This document shows, in pieces, positions 4,126 through 11,342 of a stretch of DNA of 64,000 nucleotides. The stretch's first letter is position 1, and every line of letters starts with the position of its first letter. The notes under the pieces were generated by a model. The model searched no databases and was not told the origin of the DNA. It was given only the letters and a program-made list of their open reading frames with translations. The stretch comes from an uncultured Pseudomonadota bacterium (GTDB taxonomy: Bacteria > Myxococcota_A > Polyangia > Fen-1088): positions 192,001 to 256,000 of the forward strand of contig CAWKBC010000021.1 in NCBI GenBank assembly GCA_963847705.1, read 5' to 3'. The translations under genes and the position numbers were made by a program.

Positions 4126-4422
4126 ATGGCGACCAAGTTCAGCGATTTCATGGCTGAGTTGAAGCGCGAGGCGGAGGCGGAGGCGGAGGGGCCCGAGGCG
4201 GTCGCTGAGCTGAAGCACTTTCGCGAGCGCTATCGCCTCGCCCGTCGCTTCGCCGAGGCGCGTCGGAGGCGCGGCTGGACGCAGAAGAAGCTGGCCCAGA
4301 AGACAGGCCTCAACCAGAGCGAGATCTCGACGTTCGAAAACGGTCAGGCGAATCCCACCTACCGGACGCTTCAGACACTCGCAGCGGCGCTGGGTGGGAA
4401 GATCGAGCTGGTCATCGGGTAG
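4126..4422 (+). CDS. XRE/HigA-like HTH protein (apparently orphan antitoxin)
   Basis: RRRRGWTQKKLAQKTGLNQSEISTFENGQANPT HTH_3 signature; HigA-like N-terminus. Confidence 0.8.
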   Translation: MATKFSDFMAELKREAEAEAEGPEAVAELKHFRERYRLARRFAEARRRRGWTQKKLAQKTGLNQSEISTFENGQANPTYRTLQTLAAALGGKIELVIG

Positions 4423-4918: not shown

Positions 4919-5305
4919 TTGGTGACCCGTCGAACCCAGCCCGTCCTGGGGGTGCGGTTCTACCGGACGCCGACAGGAGCTCGTCCAGTGCGGGACTGGC
5001 TCTTGTCCCTATCGAGAGAGGTACGACGAGAAATTGGCGCCGACATCGGGAGAGCTCAATGGCAATGGCCGGTGGGAAAACCCCTGGTCGACGGGTTCGG
5101 CGGCGGCCTCTACGAAGTCCGGACGTCGCACGAGGGTGAGCAGTACCGCGTGCTCGTCTACGTCGATGGCGACGCGTTGGTCCTGGTCCACGGCGAGTCA
5201 ACCCGGGGGACGATGGTGCTCGTGCATGGGATTCACAAGAAGACGCAGAGGACGCCGGCCGCGGCGATCGCGCTCGCGCGGAAGCGCATGAAGGAACGGA
5301 CATGA
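4919..5305 (+). CDS. RelE/ParE-superfamily toxin (Gp49/DUF891-like)
   Basis: FYRTPTGARPVRDWL, WPVGKPLV, GLYEVR, HGIHKKTQRTP; ATGA overlap with the downstream HTH gene. Confidence 0.85.
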   Translation: MVTRRTQPVLGVRFYRTPTGARPVRDWLLSLSREVRREIGADIGRAQWQWPVGKPLVDGFGGGLYEVRTSHEGEQYRVLVYVDGDALVLVHGESTRGTMVLVHGIHKKTQRTPAAAIALARKRMKERT

Positions 5306-5628
5306 AGAGGCAAACCAAGGACGAGCTCGCAGAGATGTTCGAGGAGCTCGGCGAGCTCGAGGAGGTTCGAGCGCTCACGCGGAAGAAGGTCCTCGCCGAC
5401 GGGCTCCGGAAGGCGATGAAGTCGCAGAAGGTCACGCCTGCCGAGATGGCCCGGCGCATGGGGACGAGCCGGCCGACCGTGTACCGGTTGCTCGACCCCG
5501 CGGAGCGTGGGGCGACGCTGGACACCCTGGAACGGGCGTCACTCGCGCTGGGCCTCGATCTCCAGATCAGGCTGGTGCCGGCGGGTAGGCCGAAGGGACG
5601 CCGACAGTCCAGCCGCCGCGCCGCGTAG
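5302..5628 (+). CDS. HTH antitoxin, cognate of the upstream toxin
   Basis: AEMARRMGTSRPTVYRLLDP...TLDTLERASLALG; coupled to the toxin. Confidence 0.85.
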   Translation: MKRQTKDELAEMFEELGELEEVRALTRKKVLADGLRKAMKSQKVTPAEMARRMGTSRPTVYRLLDPAERGATLDTLERASLALGLDLQIRLVPAGRPKGRRQSSRRAA

Positions 5629-5632
5629 GCGA

Positions 5633-5661
5633 TTGCCCCCGCCTTGCGCCGCGGCTATGCT
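5633..5661 (+). promoter_or_regulatory. Sigma70-like promoter for the uORF/release-factor locus
   Basis: TTGCCC (5633-5638)-N17-TATGCT (5656-5661); +1 predicted near 5668. Confidence 0.6.
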
Positions 5662-5667
5662 CGAACT

Positions 5668-5721
5668 GTGAAGTCAGCGCTCCGGATCGGCCTGTTCGCC
5701 TCCTCGCAGCCGCGCTATTAG
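5668..5721 (+). CDS. Putative leaderless leader peptide MKSALRIGLFASSQPRY*
   Basis: GTG at the predicted TSS; TAG lies in a GCCGCG..CGCGGC hairpin; contains CTCCTCGC (5700-5707), complementary to the downstream SD region GCGAGGAG (5776-5783). Confidence 0.5.
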   Translation: MKSALRIGLFASSQPRY

Positions 5722-5789
5722 CCGCGGCGACGTCGGCGATCCGTCTGTCGAGCGCCAGAGTGAGAGTCGTTTCACGCGAGGAGTGCCCC

Positions 5790-6484
5790 ATGTCCGTCAC
5801 GTCCGTTCCGTCCGTCATCGTCGAGATCCGCGCCGCCGAAGGGGGCGAGGACGCCAAGTCCCTGGTCGACGAGCAGCTGCGCATCTACGCCCGCCGCGCG
5901 CTCCACCACGGTCTTTGACCTGGAGGTCGTCGAGGCGCGGCGGGGCCTCTGCGTCCTGCGCGTGAGCGACCGAGGAGGGGCGCGCGCCGAGCCCCTGTTC
6001 CGCGACGAGGCCGGCGGCCACCGCTGGCAGCGCGTCCCGCGCAACGAGAAGCGCGACCGCGTCCACACCAGCACCATCACCGTCGCCGTGCTCCCCGAGC
6101 CAACGGAGGTGGAGGTGCGCGTCGCGGAGCGGGATCTGGAGTGGTCGACCTGCTACGGCACCGGCCCCGGCGGCCAGAAGCGCAACAAGACCGAGTCGAC
6201 GGTGCTGCTGACGCATCGGCCGTCGGGGTTGCAGGTGCGGTGCGAGACGTCGCGCTCGCAGCAGCGGAACCGGGTCGTGGCGCTGGGGTTGTTGCGGGCG
6301 CGGCTGTGGGCGCTGGAGGCGGCGCGGGTGGGGGAGGCGCGCGCGGCGGAGCGGCGGGGGCAGGTGGGGTCGGGGATGCCGGGGGACAAGCGGCGGACGG
6401 TTCGGGCGCAGGACGGGACGGTGGTGGACCACGTCGCGGGGAGGCGGTGGGAGCTAAGGGGGGTATTTGAGGGGGGCTTGGTAA
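5790..6484 (+). CDS. Short class-I peptide chain release factor homologue (RF1-like, no domain 1) with a putative +1 frameshift at CTT-TGA-C (5913-5919)
   Basis: SD GAGGAG + ATG 5790: VEIRAAEGGEDAK...; +1 frame: EAGGHRWQRVPRNEKRDRVHTSTITVAVLP, GPGGQKRNKTESTV, CETSRSQQRNR, GDKRRT. End is TAA 6482-6484 if the G6 run is G5, otherwise 6624. Confidence 0.85.
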
Positions 6485-6553
6485 ATGGGGCGCACTCAGC
6501 TAGAGACGTCGAGGACAGCGAGGGTCCGTTCGCAGTACTATCAGCCCGCCGTT

Positions 6554-7495
6554 GTGAAGGTCTACGTCGCCGTCACCGACAAGGACTGGTTTCAGTTTCT
6601 TGGCCGCCTCAAGGAGCGGCGTGAGGCGGCGGGGGACACGTTAGACGAAGTGAATTTCTGGCAACCCGGGGGAAAGCAGCTCTTCAAGGCGCAGCAGCCT
6701 GGGGATCTCTTCCTCTTCAAACTGCACAGCCCCGACAACTTCATCGTCGGTGGAGGGTACTTCGGGCACGCGTCGCTGCTGCCTGCGCCTCTCGCGTGGG
6801 AGGCCTTCGGGCAGATGAACGGCGCCGTCTCTTTCGATGAGATGCAGATGCGGATCGCGAAGTACCGCCGGATCTCGGACGTCCGCGAGCACTTCACGGT
6901 CGGGTGCATCCTGCTGCAGAGCCCATTCTTCCTGGAACCGTCCCGTTGGATTCCCGCGCCGACGGACTTTCACCTCAATATCGTGCAGGGGAAGGGCTAT
7001 GACGGTTCCTCGTCGGAAATGCAGCGCGTGGTAGCTGCGCTCGGAGCGCCGGGCTTGACCGGGCTGCCGATCGGATTGGCCGAGGTCGATGGACCTATGT
7101 TCGGCGATCCGACGCTGGTTCGTCAGCGCCTAGGCCAAGGAACATTCCGCGTGCTGGTCACGGACACGTACGAACGGCGATGCGCGATCACGCGAGAACG
7201 CACGCTCCCGACGCTCGAAGCTGCTCACATCCTGCCCGTCGGCGAGGGGGGGAGGCACCGCGTGGACAACGGCCTTCTGTTTCGGTCGGATGTGCACCGG
7301 CTCTTCGACGCTGGTTACGTGACCGTCACACCCGACTACCGCTTTCGCGTCAGCAGCAGAATCAAGAAGGAGTTCGAAAATGGGAAGGAGTACTACGCGA
7401 TTGACGACCGGCCGCTGTGGCTTCCTGCCAATCCAGCCCTGCAGCCGAACAAGGAGTTTCTCTCCTGGCACTCGGAGGCGCGATTCGTGGGATAG
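6554..7495 (+). CDS. HNH endonuclease with N-terminal putative modified-DNA-binding domain (putative restriction endonuclease)
   Basis: VAVTDKDW, EVNFWQP, FLFKLHSP; RLGQGTFR, CAIT, LEAAHI, NGLLFRSDVHRLFDAG. Confidence 0.85.
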   Translation: MKVYVAVTDKDWFQFLGRLKERREAAGDTLDEVNFWQPGGKQLFKAQQPGDLFLFKLHSPDNFIVGGGYFGHASLLPAPLAWEAFGQMNGAVSFDEMQMRIAKYRRISDVREHFTVGCILLQSPFFLEPSRWIPAPTDFHLNIVQGKGYDGSSSEMQRVVAALGAPGLTGLPIGLAEVDGPMFGDPTLVRQRLGQGTFRVLVTDTYERRCAITRERTLPTLEAAHILPVGEGGRHRVDNGLLFRSDVHRLFDAGYVTVTPDYRFRVSSRIKKEFENGKEYYAIDDRPLWLPANPALQPNKEFLSWHSEARFVG

Positions 7496-7504
7496 GGTCG
7501 GCCC

Positions 7505-7849
7505 ATGACACCCCTCGACGAGCTTCGCGGAGAGCTTCGAGCTTTCGTAACGGCACGCGACTGGGAACAGTTCCACGACCCGAAAAATCTGGCCATGCTG
7601 GTGGCGTCAGAAGCCGGGGAGCTGGTGGCGGAGTACCGATGGATCCGAAGCGACGAGGCGGACGCTCACTCTCGCGAGCCGGCAACGCGCGAACGGATTG
7701 CAGCGGAGGTAGCCGATGTGGGGATCGGACTGCTGCTTCTATGCGAAAGGATCGGGTTGGATCTGGTGGAGGTGATGCGGGCGAAGGTGGCTAAGAATGC
7801 CGAGCGGTATCCGGCGGAGGCGGCGCGGGGACGGGCGGAGCGACCATAG
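7505..7849 (+). CDS. MazG-like nucleotide pyrophosphohydrolase (dCTPase-like)
   Basis: RDWEQFHDPKNLAMLVASEAGEL...EVADV...KNAERYP. Confidence 0.9.
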   Translation: MTPLDELRGELRAFVTARDWEQFHDPKNLAMLVASEAGELVAEYRWIRSDEADAHSREPATRERIAAEVADVGIGLLLLCERIGLDLVEVMRAKVAKNAERYPAEAARGRAERP

Positions 7850-8147: not shown

Positions 8148-11100
8148 TTGGACGATAGCCTGAGCGGCATCGTGAGCAATCTCGAAATCGGCCGCGAGCG
8201 GACCGTCGTGACGTGCGATGCTCCGCTCGTGGCACGCCCGCTTCCGGAGGGAGTCTACGAGCATCCAATCACCCGGGAACTCGAGGCGGCGTTGCAGGCG
8301 CTCGATGCTGATCGACAACAGCTTGGCGCGATCGGAGACGCGGAGAGTCCCGCCGTCGTCGCTCGACATGTGGCACAGGAACTTGCCCGCGTACTTGACG
8401 GCACCGATATCAAGGACCGTGCGGAGGTCGCCCGTGCGCTAGGTGATCGACTGCTCGCGGAGATTGCGACGTTCGCCACGGCTCACCACCAGGACGAGGT
8501 GCCGGTCCTCGACCAACGACTCGCACCGCCGCCGCGTCGACTGCTCTCGATTCACAAAGGCCGACCGCCGGCTCGTCCAGAGACACCATTTTCGACATCC
8601 ACCCTGCTCACCCGGAATCGTGCTGAGCCGGCCCTTGGACGCGAGCTTGCATGCGAGCTAGGCACGGCCAATCGTGTAGATGCCATCGTCGCCTTCGTTA
8701 CGGTGGGCGGAGTTCGACTGCTCGGCGAGGCTCTTGAAGAATTCAGCGCTCGGGGCGTCGGACTTCGGTTTCGCTTGCTGACGACGGTCTTCAGCGGGAC
8801 CACAGAGATCGAGGCGATGGACCGCCTTGCACGGCTGCCCGGGGTACAAATCAAGATTTCCTACGACGTACGTCGGACACGACTTCACGCCAAGGCATGG
8901 CTCTTTCATCGCGACAGCGGCCTGTCGACGGCGTATGTCGGTTCGGCCAACCTTACGTCGACGGCGCTCGGCGGTGGCCAAGAGTGGATGGTCAAGGTCT
9001 GCGCGGCCGACCTCCCTCAGGTGATCGAGAAATTCGAAGGCACCTTCGACAGCCTCTGGGAGGATCCGGAGTTCGAGGCATACGATCCCGGTCAGGAAGA
9101 AGGTCGCACGCGCCTGCGATCCGCCCTGGGCGCCGAACGTTCGGGCTCGGACGTGCCGACTTCGCTGGTCTCGCTTCGGCCGCTCCCATTTCAGGAGGAG
9201 ATCCTCGATCGGCTAAGGGTCGAACGCGAGCTTCACGGGCGCCGCCGAAACCTTATCGTTGCCGCCACCGGCACTGGCAAGACTGTCATCGCCGCATGTG
9301 ACTACGCGCGCATCGCTGCCGCATTAGGCACGCGTCCCCGACTGCTCTTTCTCGCCCATCGGAAGGAGATCCTTCTGCAAGCGCGCGACACGTTCCGTCA
9401 TGCAATGCAGGACGGTGCCTTTGGTGAACTTCTGGTCGACGGCGACCGCCCTGAGGCTTACCAACACGTCTTCGCTACAATCCAGAGCTTCGCCGCGGCG
9501 GGGCTGATCGAGCGCCTCGGGCCCGCCCACTTTCACCACGTCGTCGTCGACGAGTGTCACCATCTCCCAGCGCCGTCGTATCAAAGCGTCGTTCTGCGCC
9601 TGCAACCCGACATCTTGGTCGGCCTCACTGCCACACCCGAACGCAGCGACGGGAAGTCACTGCTGCCCGACTTCGACGGTCATGTCGCGCACGAGCTTCG
9701 CCTGTGGCAAGCGCTAGACCAGCAACTTCTGGTTCCGTTCGAGTACTTCGGGATCTCAGACACCACGGATCTGCGAAGCGTCCGTTGGACACGCACCGGT
9801 TACGACCAGGCAGCGCTCTCCGACCTCTACACGGGCAACGATGCCCGCGCCGCGCTGGTGCTGGCACAACTGGCCCGCCGCGTCGGCGACCTGCGCATGA
9901 TCCGCGCACTCGGATTCTGCGTCAGTGTCGAGCACGCTAAGTTCATGGCCACGCAGTTTTGCATTGCCGGCACTCCTGCCCTGGCCGTCCACGGTGATTC
10001 GCCTGCCGACGAGCGCGCGCGCGCCGCCGCCCGTTTGCGTGAGCGCGAGGTGAACATCGTCTTTACGTGCGACCTTTACAATGAGGGCGTCGACCTCCCA
10101 TTCGTGGATTCGCTCCTGTTGTTGCGGCCCACTCAGAGCGCGACGCTATTCCTTCAACAGCTCGGCCGCGGTCTGCGCCATCACGAGCGTAAGGAGTCCT
10201 GTCTAGTTCTCGATTTTATTGGCCAACAGCATGAGCGTTTCCGCTTCGATGGTCTTTTCAGCGCCATGACAGGTGTGCCTCGTGCCCGGCTGACTAAAGC
10301 GGTCGCGGACGGCTTCCCCTATCTCCCGAGCGGCTGCACGGTCCAACTTGACCGCGTCGCTCGCGATGAGGTCCTTCGCTCGCTCCGACAGACGGTCGCC
10401 ACCGCCCGTACGATGGTGCCTGAACTCAAAGAGCTCGCCGCCGAGAAATCGGGCGCGTTGTCATTGCGCGAGTACCTCGCCGCGACAGGTCGCGAACTCG
10501 AAGATATCTATGCGGCCGGCGGCTGGACGACATTGAAGCGCCGGGCGCGCTTGGCCGACGGCGATGATGCCGAGACGGAGGATCTCAGTCGTCGACTTGG
10601 ATGGTTACTACACATCGACGAGCCTGCGCGGCTGCAAGCCCAAGGGTTGGCCATCTCCCTACCTGACGGCGGCCAGGTCGACGGGGCACTCTCAGCAATC
10701 GATAAGAGGCGGATCGAGATGCTCGACGCTCAGCTTTGGCCTCGTGGTGAGGTCCGATCCGCCGAGGAGACAGTACATGCCCTGACGGAGCGTCCAGGCA
10801 TTGCGGCGGAGGTGGGTGAATTACAGGAGGTCCTAAACGAGCGGATAGTCGTTGCGAGCGCGATCTATCCGGTACCGGAGTGGCCGCTCTGCCTGCATCA
10901 CCACTACTCGCGGCGGGAGATCGTGGCCGCAGTAGGGTTTGTTGGACAGGGGGAGAAGAAGAAGAGTCTTCAAGGAGGCATCCTCACGCTGAAGGACCGT
11001 CCGTGCGAGTTGCTTTTCGTTACGCTCGACAAGACCGGTGCTGGCTTCTCGCCCACCACCCGCTATCGAGACTACGCGATCAGCCGAGACCTGTTTCACT

Positions 11101-11342
11101 GGGAGACGCAAGGGGCGGCGAGCGTATCGCGCCCGAGTGGGCGTCGGTATATAGAGAGCCCAGGCAACGGTATGACGTTCCAGCTATTCGTCCGGCTGGG
11201 GCCAGACGACGCGTTCGCGTACCTGGGCCCTGCGCTTTATGTGCGACACGAGGGCGACCGACCGATCGCGATCACTTGGAAGTTGGAGGCCCCGATGCCC
11301 GGGGGACTCTTTGAGAAATACGCGACTTTGGCAACGTCGTAG
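8148..11342 (+). CDS. PLD nuclease-SF2 helicase-DUF3427 protein (SauUSI-like type IV restriction enzyme)
   Basis: LHAKAW...GSANL (PLD), ATGTGKT, DECHH, TATPER, EGVDLP, QQLGRGLR; C-terminal YRDYAISRDLFHWETQ. Confidence 0.85.
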   Translation: MDDSLSGIVSNLEIGRERTVVTCDAPLVARPLPEGVYEHPITRELEAALQALDADRQQLGAIGDAESPAVVARHVAQELARVLDGTDIKDRAEVARALGDRLLAEIATFATAHHQDEVPVLDQRLAPPPRRLLSIHKGRPPARPETPFSTSTLLTRNRAEPALGRELACELGTANRVDAIVAFVTVGGVRLLGEALEEFSARGVGLRFRLLTTVFSGTTEIEAMDRLARLPGVQIKISYDVRRTRLHAKAWLFHRDSGLSTAYVGSANLTSTALGGGQEWMVKVCAADLPQVIEKFEGTFDSLWEDPEFEAYDPGQEEGRTRLRSALGAERSGSDVPTSLVSLRPLPFQEEILDRLRVERELHGRRRNLIVAATGTGKTVIAACDYARIAAALGTRPRLLFLAHRKEILLQARDTFRHAMQDGAFGELLVDGDRPEAYQHVFATIQSFAAAGLIERLGPAHFHHVVVDECHHLPAPSYQSVVLRLQPDILVGLTATPERSDGKSLLPDFDGHVAHELRLWQALDQQLLVPFEYFGISDTTDLRSVRWTRTGYDQAALSDLYTGNDARAALVLAQLARRVGDLRMIRALGFCVSVEHAKFMATQFCIAGTPALAVHGDSPADERARAAARLREREVNIVFTCDLYNEGVDLPFVDSLLLLRPTQSATLFLQQLGRGLRHHERKESCLVLDFIGQQHERFRFDGLFSAMTGVPRARLTKAVADGFPYLPSGCTVQLDRVARDEVLRSLRQTVATARTMVPELKELAAEKSGALSLREYLAATGRELEDIYAAGGWTTLKRRARLADGDDAETEDLSRRLGWLLHIDEPARLQAQGLAISLPDGGQVDGALSAIDKRRIEMLDAQLWPRGEVRSAEETVHALTERPGIAAEVGELQEVLNERIVVASAIYPVPEWPLCLHHHYSRREIVAAVGFVGQGEKKKSLQGGILTLKDRPCELLFVTLDKTGAGFSPTTRYRDYAISRDLFHWETQGAASVSRPSGRRYIESPGNGMTFQLFVRLGPDDAFAYLGPALYVRHEGDRPIAITWKLEAPMPGGLFEKYATLATS

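Follow-up and report, generated by a model that had tools for sequence, protein, structure and literature searches.

Can a +1 frameshift site of the kind that interrupts prfB also be present in a release factor gene that is not prfB, and what would such a gene be for? The question is raised by a split gene in the window, that is, the whole stretch of 64,000 nucleotides analyzed here. The first-pass annotation had proposed that translation from ATG 5790, preceded by the Shine-Dalgarno (SD) sequence GAGGAG, runs through 42 codons of release-factor-like sequence up to GGT CTT TGA C, and that skipping one base leads from there into an ORF with the GGQ motif. Rereading of the sequence recovered all these elements, with GAGGAG at 5778-5783, GGT at 5910-5912, CTT at 5913-5915, TGA at 5916-5918, and C at 5919, and the frame from 5917 is open, with PCRF and RF-1 (GGQ) matches. 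The features of the gene are the following:

5778..5783, + strand: Shine-Dalgarno sequence GAGGAG of the release factor gene (from the sequence; kept in orthologues)
5790..5918, + strand: first reading frame, 42 codons, ending in TGA; first strand and long helix of the codon-reading domain
5913..5919, + strand: putative +1 shift site CTT TGA C; CTT and C are conserved in family loci
5917..6484, + strand: second reading frame (+1), with the rest of domains 2, 3, and 4; as assembled, open to 6624
6037..6045, + strand: position of the RF1 PxT tripeptide, Pro-Arg-Asn here and Pro-Pro-Thr in most family members
6169..6177, + strand: GGQ catalytic motif (from the sequence; found in 266/269 family loci)
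6456..6458, + strand: one extra base beside a G run (from comparison with relatives); alters the assembled C-terminus

The split gene and the reality of the break

Against the PCRF profile, the two pieces align one after the other, the 42-aa piece covering positions 101-134 (E 2e-4) and the second piece positions 166-194, and when read through the site as one protein they give an unbroken alignment to residues 111-336 of Escherichia coli RF1. GC3 is 0.90 in the proposed frame before the break and 0.95 in the one after it. CTT is indeed an unusual Leu codon in this genome, where it makes up 2.9% of the Leu codons in long high-GC3 ORFs. The prfB-type heptamer occurs three times on the + strand of the 64-kb window, so that it is not rare by itself and owes its significance to its conservation. 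Besides the split gene, the genome of this soil bacterium carries prfA, an ArfB-like gene, and on contig C27 a prfB that has an SD and a CTT TGA C of its own, which makes the split release factor gene an extra one.

Alignment of homologous DNA revealed that 7 of 7 aligned orthologues keep CTTT followed by a stop codon (TGA in three, TAG in three, and TAA in one). The possibility of an assembly indel, raised with the original proposal, was addressed with contigs of eight public runs, which come from relatives and not from the source reads and were compared over 5600-6600; none has an indel at 5913-5916. The contigs of four runs (X2, X4, X7, and X18) carry the TAG variant of the shift site, and the one from an RNA library (X18) keeps the T run unchanged, a weak indication; RNA runs X19 and X20 yielded only short or probably DNA pieces. 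Differences between 5790..5918 and its orthologues fall mostly in the third codon position (349 vs. 150 and 128). A scan of 5300-6800 against Rfam returned two matches, both at chance level.

There is hardly any chance that an assembly indel or a pseudogene lesion caused the break. Such a reading could point to the separate one-base insertion that this copy has near 6457, and to the further lesions of a close relative, L007. Against it stand the presence of the same site at the same codon in 149 distinct loci, the stop-to-stop substitutions among orthologues, the intact site in the contigs of eight independent runs, and the third-position-biased change ahead of the break. On this comparative evidence the break is real and not an assembly error, and the proposal that a release factor gene other than prfB has a +1 site of the prfB type is supported. 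The extra base near 6457 is another matter: it is absent from 6/6 orthologues and from the contigs of runs X2, X3, and X7, and probably reflects either a mistake in assembly or damage to the gene in this strain, the true end of the gene probably being TAA 6482-6484. As to L007 (genome G021, 1280-1960), this close orthologue is either decayed or misassembled: its start region is gone, and it has a second frameshift.

A family of gated release factors

Starting from gated members (the gate being the break or stop that interrupts the gene), homologous loci were gathered from genomes, metagenomes, viral contigs, and phage records and were classified with profiles of the two protein halves. After leaving out 31 canonical RF1, RF2, or PrfH loci, 15 loci without a usable N-terminal part, a -1 case (L087), a further-broken gene present in two copies, four weak matches from metagenomes, and exact duplicates, 269 distinct loci were kept, comprising 146 viral ones, 65 from genomes, and 58 from metagenomes. 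A +1 break is found in 164 of them, an in-frame stop in 102, and a continuous frame in three; at 90% protein identity, the figures become 135, 82, and 2 (n = 219). The +1 loci read CTT TGA (118), CTT TAG (41), CTT TAA (4), or CCT TGA (1). CTT thus precedes the stop in 163/164, vs. 11.6% CTT among the downstream Leu codons of such genes, and C follows the stop directly in 129/164. The stop at the shift varies over all three codons, with frame and position constant. In-frame gates consist of TGA in 101 loci and TAG in one, some genes having two stops.

The +1 sites lie mainly 31, 41, or 47 codons past a conserved Glu and the in-frame stops 30 to 45 codons past it, and one lineage has an in-frame TGA at the exact codon where its neighbours shift. 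Ten changes among shift, readthrough, and no gate were counted on a 52-row tree, which, together with the several gate positions, indicates that the gate was rebuilt repeatedly. Readthrough genes terminate in TAA in 74/80 cases. Two complete phage genomes whose gate is an in-frame UGA were sampled over 200 kb each; 0/48 and 1/51 of their TGA-ended ORFs continue as coding sequence, and TGA is an ordinary stop elsewhere in these two genomes. This was judged by a codon-model test, which was relied on because ORF coverage under code 4 is inflated by antisense frames and was rejected as evidence of recoding; a search of neighbouring phage genes for in-frame TGA codons that are conserved was uninformative, being swamped by antisense frames as well. 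Since the gates have moved, shift and readthrough replace each other, and TGA stops translation normally elsewhere, the conserved trait would seem to be dependence on an undecoded stop codon and not one particular sequence.

Nevertheless, gating is apparently not universal. Among the best 150 matches of a full-length profile, searched against 1.84 billion representatives, we read about 24 as uninterrupted family proteins of 219-317 aa and about 15 as C-terminal halves. About 10 of the full-length relatives look truly ungated, since they have no Trp in the gate zone. This search favours unsplit genes and the locus searches were seeded with gated members, the true gated share lying somewhere between the two samples.

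The absence of an internal SD just upstream of the site had been put forward as a difference from E. coli prfB. This holds for the present copy, which reads CAC CAC GGT there, but not for the family, in which 69/164 +1 loci have GGAGG or GGGGG at a distance of three bases ahead of CTT under a strict rule, and an SD-like element accompanies the main site in 64/86 under a loose one. Indeed, Arg-Arg pairs before the shift site are encoded by CGG AGG in 55/59 cases, creating GGAGG at the prfB spacing, where about 1.5% would be expected from Arg codon usage. The copy in the window, having no such stimulator, may therefore shift poorly.

The encoded protein appears from its sequence to be a short, RF1-derived release factor without domain 1. 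Its median length in the family is 223 aa, the start lies 1-19 codons ahead of the first domain-2 strand, and no domain-1 homology was found upstream of the gene in the 205 loci searched. Domain 1 is reported to be dispensable for peptide release but required for RF3 (PMC1586002). The best PDB matches are RF1 (E 3e-39), RF2 (5e-25), and PrfH (5e-10), and the predicted model of a continuous relative (pLDDT 95) superposes on ribosome-bound RF1 with a TM of 0.92. In an IQ-TREE analysis of a 76-row subset, the family forms one clade (SH-aLRT 100) placed beside RF1 (98) and apart from RF2 and PrfH; an earlier FastTree run had given low support to its monophyly (0.33). The RF1 alignment and the relative's model agree with the proposed location of the site in the codon-recognition superdomain, placing the gate after the long first helix and ahead of the strand that follows it; both halves would thus be needed. 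The tip of this helix reads the first stop base (PMC1586002), and residues changed specifically in the family gather around this tip and in the preceding strand, at the reading head. GGQ is present in 266/269 loci, the other three being truncated or broken; Pro-Pro-Thr occupies the RF1-type PxT position in 183/269, with Pro-Arg-Asn in this copy, and the RF1-type Gln and Thr of the reading head are largely retained. No convincing co-variation was detected between codon-reading residues and the identity of the gate stop, and near-identical proteins use different stops, six clusters at 80% identity mixing them.

Members of the family are carried mostly by large phages and have settled singly in Myxococcota chromosomes. 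Viral copies occur in phage records of up to 735 kb (records of 485-735 kb among them) and often in tRNA arrays, with at least 3 tRNAs within 4 kb in 50/111 viral clusters. Cellular copies are patchy: the gene was found in 6/89 genomes of the window's family, all within its genus, and in at least 4/401 genomes phylum-wide, a lower bound since eight candidates were scored per genome. Among named records, the closest come from Polyangia and other Myxococcota, with cultured Nannocystis among them. RF1 and RF2 of their own were present in 9/10 host genomes checked. No conserved neighbour gene was found beside the cellular copies. In the window, this lone release factor gene has toxin-antitoxin-like, HNH, MazG-like, and helicase genes as neighbours, and its surroundings resemble a defence island: the stretches 4126-4422, 4919-5628, 6485-7849, and 8148-11342 encode an HTH regulator, a Gp49-family toxin with its HTH partner, an HNH nuclease, a MazG-like protein, and a PLD-helicase-DUF3427 protein.

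Several further observations concern the surroundings of individual loci. In two bacterial genomes (L077 and L084) the gene lies within arrays of 29 and 27 tRNA genes, as in large phages or mobile elements. tmRNA genes adjoin the release factor gene in phage loci L103, L221, L229, and L307, RNA ligases are encoded near L085, L125, L138, and L290, and a TROVE protein near L164. Ten phage loci (L214, L215, L218, L220-L224, L229, and L307) have a CUA (amber suppressor-type) tRNA within 4 kb, and the gate is TAG in some of them; pieces of two further phage genomes (L367 and L359) carry CUA and UCA tRNA. Phages with amber-type tRNAs gained no coverage under code 15 or code 4 (20 pieces, three genomes). 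The gate itself could be a target of a suppressor tRNA from the phage.

Leader ORF, proposed mechanism, and rival explanations

Upstream of the gene, three more features were recorded:

5633..5661, + strand: candidate sigma-70-like promoter, TTGCCC, 17 nt, TATGCT (from reading of the sequence)
5668..5721, + strand: near-leaderless leader ORF of 17 codons, GTG to TAG followed by C (conserved in relatives)
5700..5707, + strand: possible anti-SD complementary to the ribosome-binding site, pairing with 5776-5783 in the minimum-energy fold; weak

Within the -10 box, T, A, and T are invariant in 11 aligned leaders; a consensus scanner for promoters and terminators called none, the candidate at 5633..5661 included. 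The frame, start, and peptide of the leader are kept in relatives, with synonymous changes and 3-nt indels. Leader ORFs precede 20/78 cellular shift loci vs. 2.8 expected from shuffles, and show no enrichment at viral loci (6/48 vs. 7.8, and 15/76 vs. 21 expected). The leader stop is identical to the gate stop in 28/33 cases under a strict rule and in 48/60 under a relaxed one, this copy being a mismatch (leader TAG, gate TGA). Independent pairs from unselected sets were concordant in 4/4 (p 0.125) and in about 6/9 with almost none opposite (median p 0.03); a result of 6/6 was discounted, as it came from ten hand-picked rows with one discordant row dropped.

In leader-peptide attenuators of the ermC or tnaC type, stalling of a ribosome either exposes the SD or covers a Rho site. 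As in these, a conserved short ORF precedes the release factor gene, and the leader ORF might, more tentatively than the gate, be a second sensor of slow termination. How it could do so was modelled in three ways, none of which gained support. The pairing of 5700-5707 with 5776-5783 has z = -0.29, and when an anti-SD attenuator was modelled by equilibrium folding, the SD became more accessible under ribosome occupancy than it did in shuffles for only 21/38 leaders; a Rho-site model found neither a C-rich signal nor a clear C-over-G skew (23/42 leaders); and fusion of the leader frame to that of the gene is at odds with the phase between them, which is not fixed. Separately, the leaders of L041, L043, L377, and L419 end in CTT TAG C, the heptamer of those genes' own gate. 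A short pyrimidine-rich motif recurs 15-25 bases past the leader stop (5740-5750 in the window; also L376, L386, L399, L404, and L005) in otherwise divergent spacers. In L043, L046, L054, L419, and L424, a tRNA-like element lies between leader ORF and gene (called as tRNA-Ser in L043), and a local hairpin appears to cover the SD.

By analogy with prfB, we consider it probable that the gene encodes a stop-gated, RF1-derived factor that is made only when a stop codon goes undecoded and acts as a back-up terminator when host factors are short. A ribosome with leucyl-tRNA on CUU would wait at the undecoded stop, and the tRNA would re-pair from CUU to UUU, this +1 slip, which we infer from the prfB mechanism, giving the full factor; an SD-like element would help the slip in many relatives. 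Efficient termination at the gate would yield only the 42-residue piece. The full factor would then relieve the slow termination that had induced it, for which it must read UGA besides the codons of RF1. That UGA, UAG, and UAA replace one another freely at the gate suggests that the protein reads more than RF1's two codons and damps its own synthesis, and a widened stop specificity is likely on these sequence grounds. Since the RF1-type PxT predicts recognition of UAA and UAG only and most gates are UGA, true feedback requires such a change of specificity.

The main rival accepts the gate as real and differs as to the product: slow termination, sensed for the host factors only, would merely call up a protein that reads UAA and UAG, or one that rescues stalled or damaged ribosomes without a stop codon. 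We regard this as unlikely, though it draws on several observations, namely that the RF1-type PxT, Gln, and Thr are largely kept although most gates are UGA, that the build without domain 1 is shared with the rescue factor PrfH, and that viral copies often lie in the tRNA arrays described above, with RNA ligases near four loci. However, a factor induced by slow UGA termination would most simply be useful if it read UGA, the family-specific changes are concentrated at the reading head, and the SxY and GP motifs of PrfH are absent. Moreover, RtcB was missing from the nearest or longest ORFs of 70 loci, a scan that covered 144 neighbours at 38 cellular loci and 127 ORFs at 32 viral ones.

It is very improbable that the stop is a fixed throttle which holds a harmful protein at a low constant level whatever the state of termination. 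Excess RF2 is toxic (PMC12421855), the double UGA gates of some phages resemble strong damping, and ungated relatives exist; yet a throttle need not involve a stop codon in each case, and it does not call for a leader ORF whose stop switches alongside the gate. Scarcely credible, too, are RNA polymerase slippage, a reassigned stop codon, or two separate proteins. Slippage would need no stop, a run of three T is short for it, and the T run is unchanged in the RNA-library contig mentioned above. The suppressor-type tRNAs at some phage loci would fit reassignment, which is contradicted by the standard code of the sampled phage genomes. A separate second protein would, in this copy, have no start codon until 5962 and, starting there, would lose a core strand.

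The preferred reading of a stop-gated back-up terminator can be extended to a bolder one, which we put forward as doubtful: the family would be a third, RF3-independent class of release factors, derived from RF1, lacking domain 1 and reading all three stops, spread by huge phages and domesticated in myxobacteria; leader ORF and gate would be two serial stop-codon sensors, retuned together to whichever of RF1 or RF2 is limiting. Back-up termination would imply that release factor supply is limiting during infection by large phages, an unexplored front of the phage-host conflict, and the family would provide a natural experiment on the basis of stop-codon specificity in class-I factors; should the protein read all three stops, it would be directly useful for genome recoding. 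Because cultured Nannocystis strains carry the gene, these predictions are testable now.

Relation to known systems

A description of the gated family was not found in the literature searched; nothing on it appears in the available parts of PMC6514570, PMC7824862, PMC3711429, and PMC7918605, nor in a word search of PMC13282480. Members may be listed in the prfA pseudogene table of PMC12421855, the cluster lists of PMC3711429, or the gene tables of PMC7162821. Annotation pipelines split these genes and mislabel them as RF1.

Huge and stop-recoded phages also encode class-I release factors, but in the accessible text of the reports (PMC7162821; bioRxiv 2021.08.26.457843) their RF1 and RF2 are tied to the code change, and no truncated family or gate is named; unlike such phages, those sampled here use the standard code. 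The nearest viral analogue is the eRF1-like factor of Mimivirus and Megavirus, which shares with the family its viral setting, internal stops, a combination of frameshift and readthrough, and a proposed autoregulation (PMC3521657). It nevertheless has the unrelated eukaryotic/archaeal fold and eukaryotic hosts, and comprises two genes, whereas the present family has hundreds, with gates repeatedly moved.

PrfH (RFH) resembles the family in its similar size, class-I nature, lack of domain 1, GGQ motif, and sporadic distribution (PMC1586002; bioRxiv 2025.01.09.632186). The family differs in having neither the SxY loop nor GP at the helix tip, forms a separate clade, and scores 57 bits against the TIGR03072 cut-off of 166.65; rtcB, which lies directly upstream of prfH, was not seen beside it in the neighbour scan. 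Two host genomes carry both PrfH and the family gene. Divergent PrfH-like genes below the curated cut-off were also noted in Myxococcota genomes (L147, L148, and L330). RF1 is the best match in sequence and structure, with GGQ and domains 2-4 in common and, in most of the family, the RF1-type reading loop, where this copy has Pro-Arg-Asn. It is, however, a protein of about 355 aa with domain 1 and an uninterrupted gene, whereas the family protein has about 223 aa, no domain 1, and a recoding gate, and the family is an accessory, patchy clade of its own, on a long branch and with an altered reading head.

The closest parallel in mode of expression is prfB, with its cassette of SD-like element, 3-nt spacer, and CUU UGA C for autoregulatory +1 frameshifting (PMC12421855, PMC3711429). 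The CUU slippery codon, the weak C at +4, and a stop-gated release factor are common to both, as is, in many family members, the SD spacing, this copy having no SD element. The family, on the other hand, has no SPF motif and sits on the RF1 side of the tree, and its site lies in the codon-reading domain, whereas that of prfB is near codon 26 in domain 1. In the available part of a survey of 12,753 genomes, TAG gates were found in 0/8,164 prfB genes and no conserved shift in prfA (PMC12421855); TAG is the gate in 41/164 of the family's +1 loci, and, unlike in prfB, the +1 gate is interchangeable with in-frame UGA gates. To judge from the sequences, the gene thus seems to work like prfB while being neither prfB nor RF1 nor PrfH: prfB is the textbook termination-sensing gene, and the family would represent the same device rebuilt several times, by frameshift or readthrough and with any of the stop codons.
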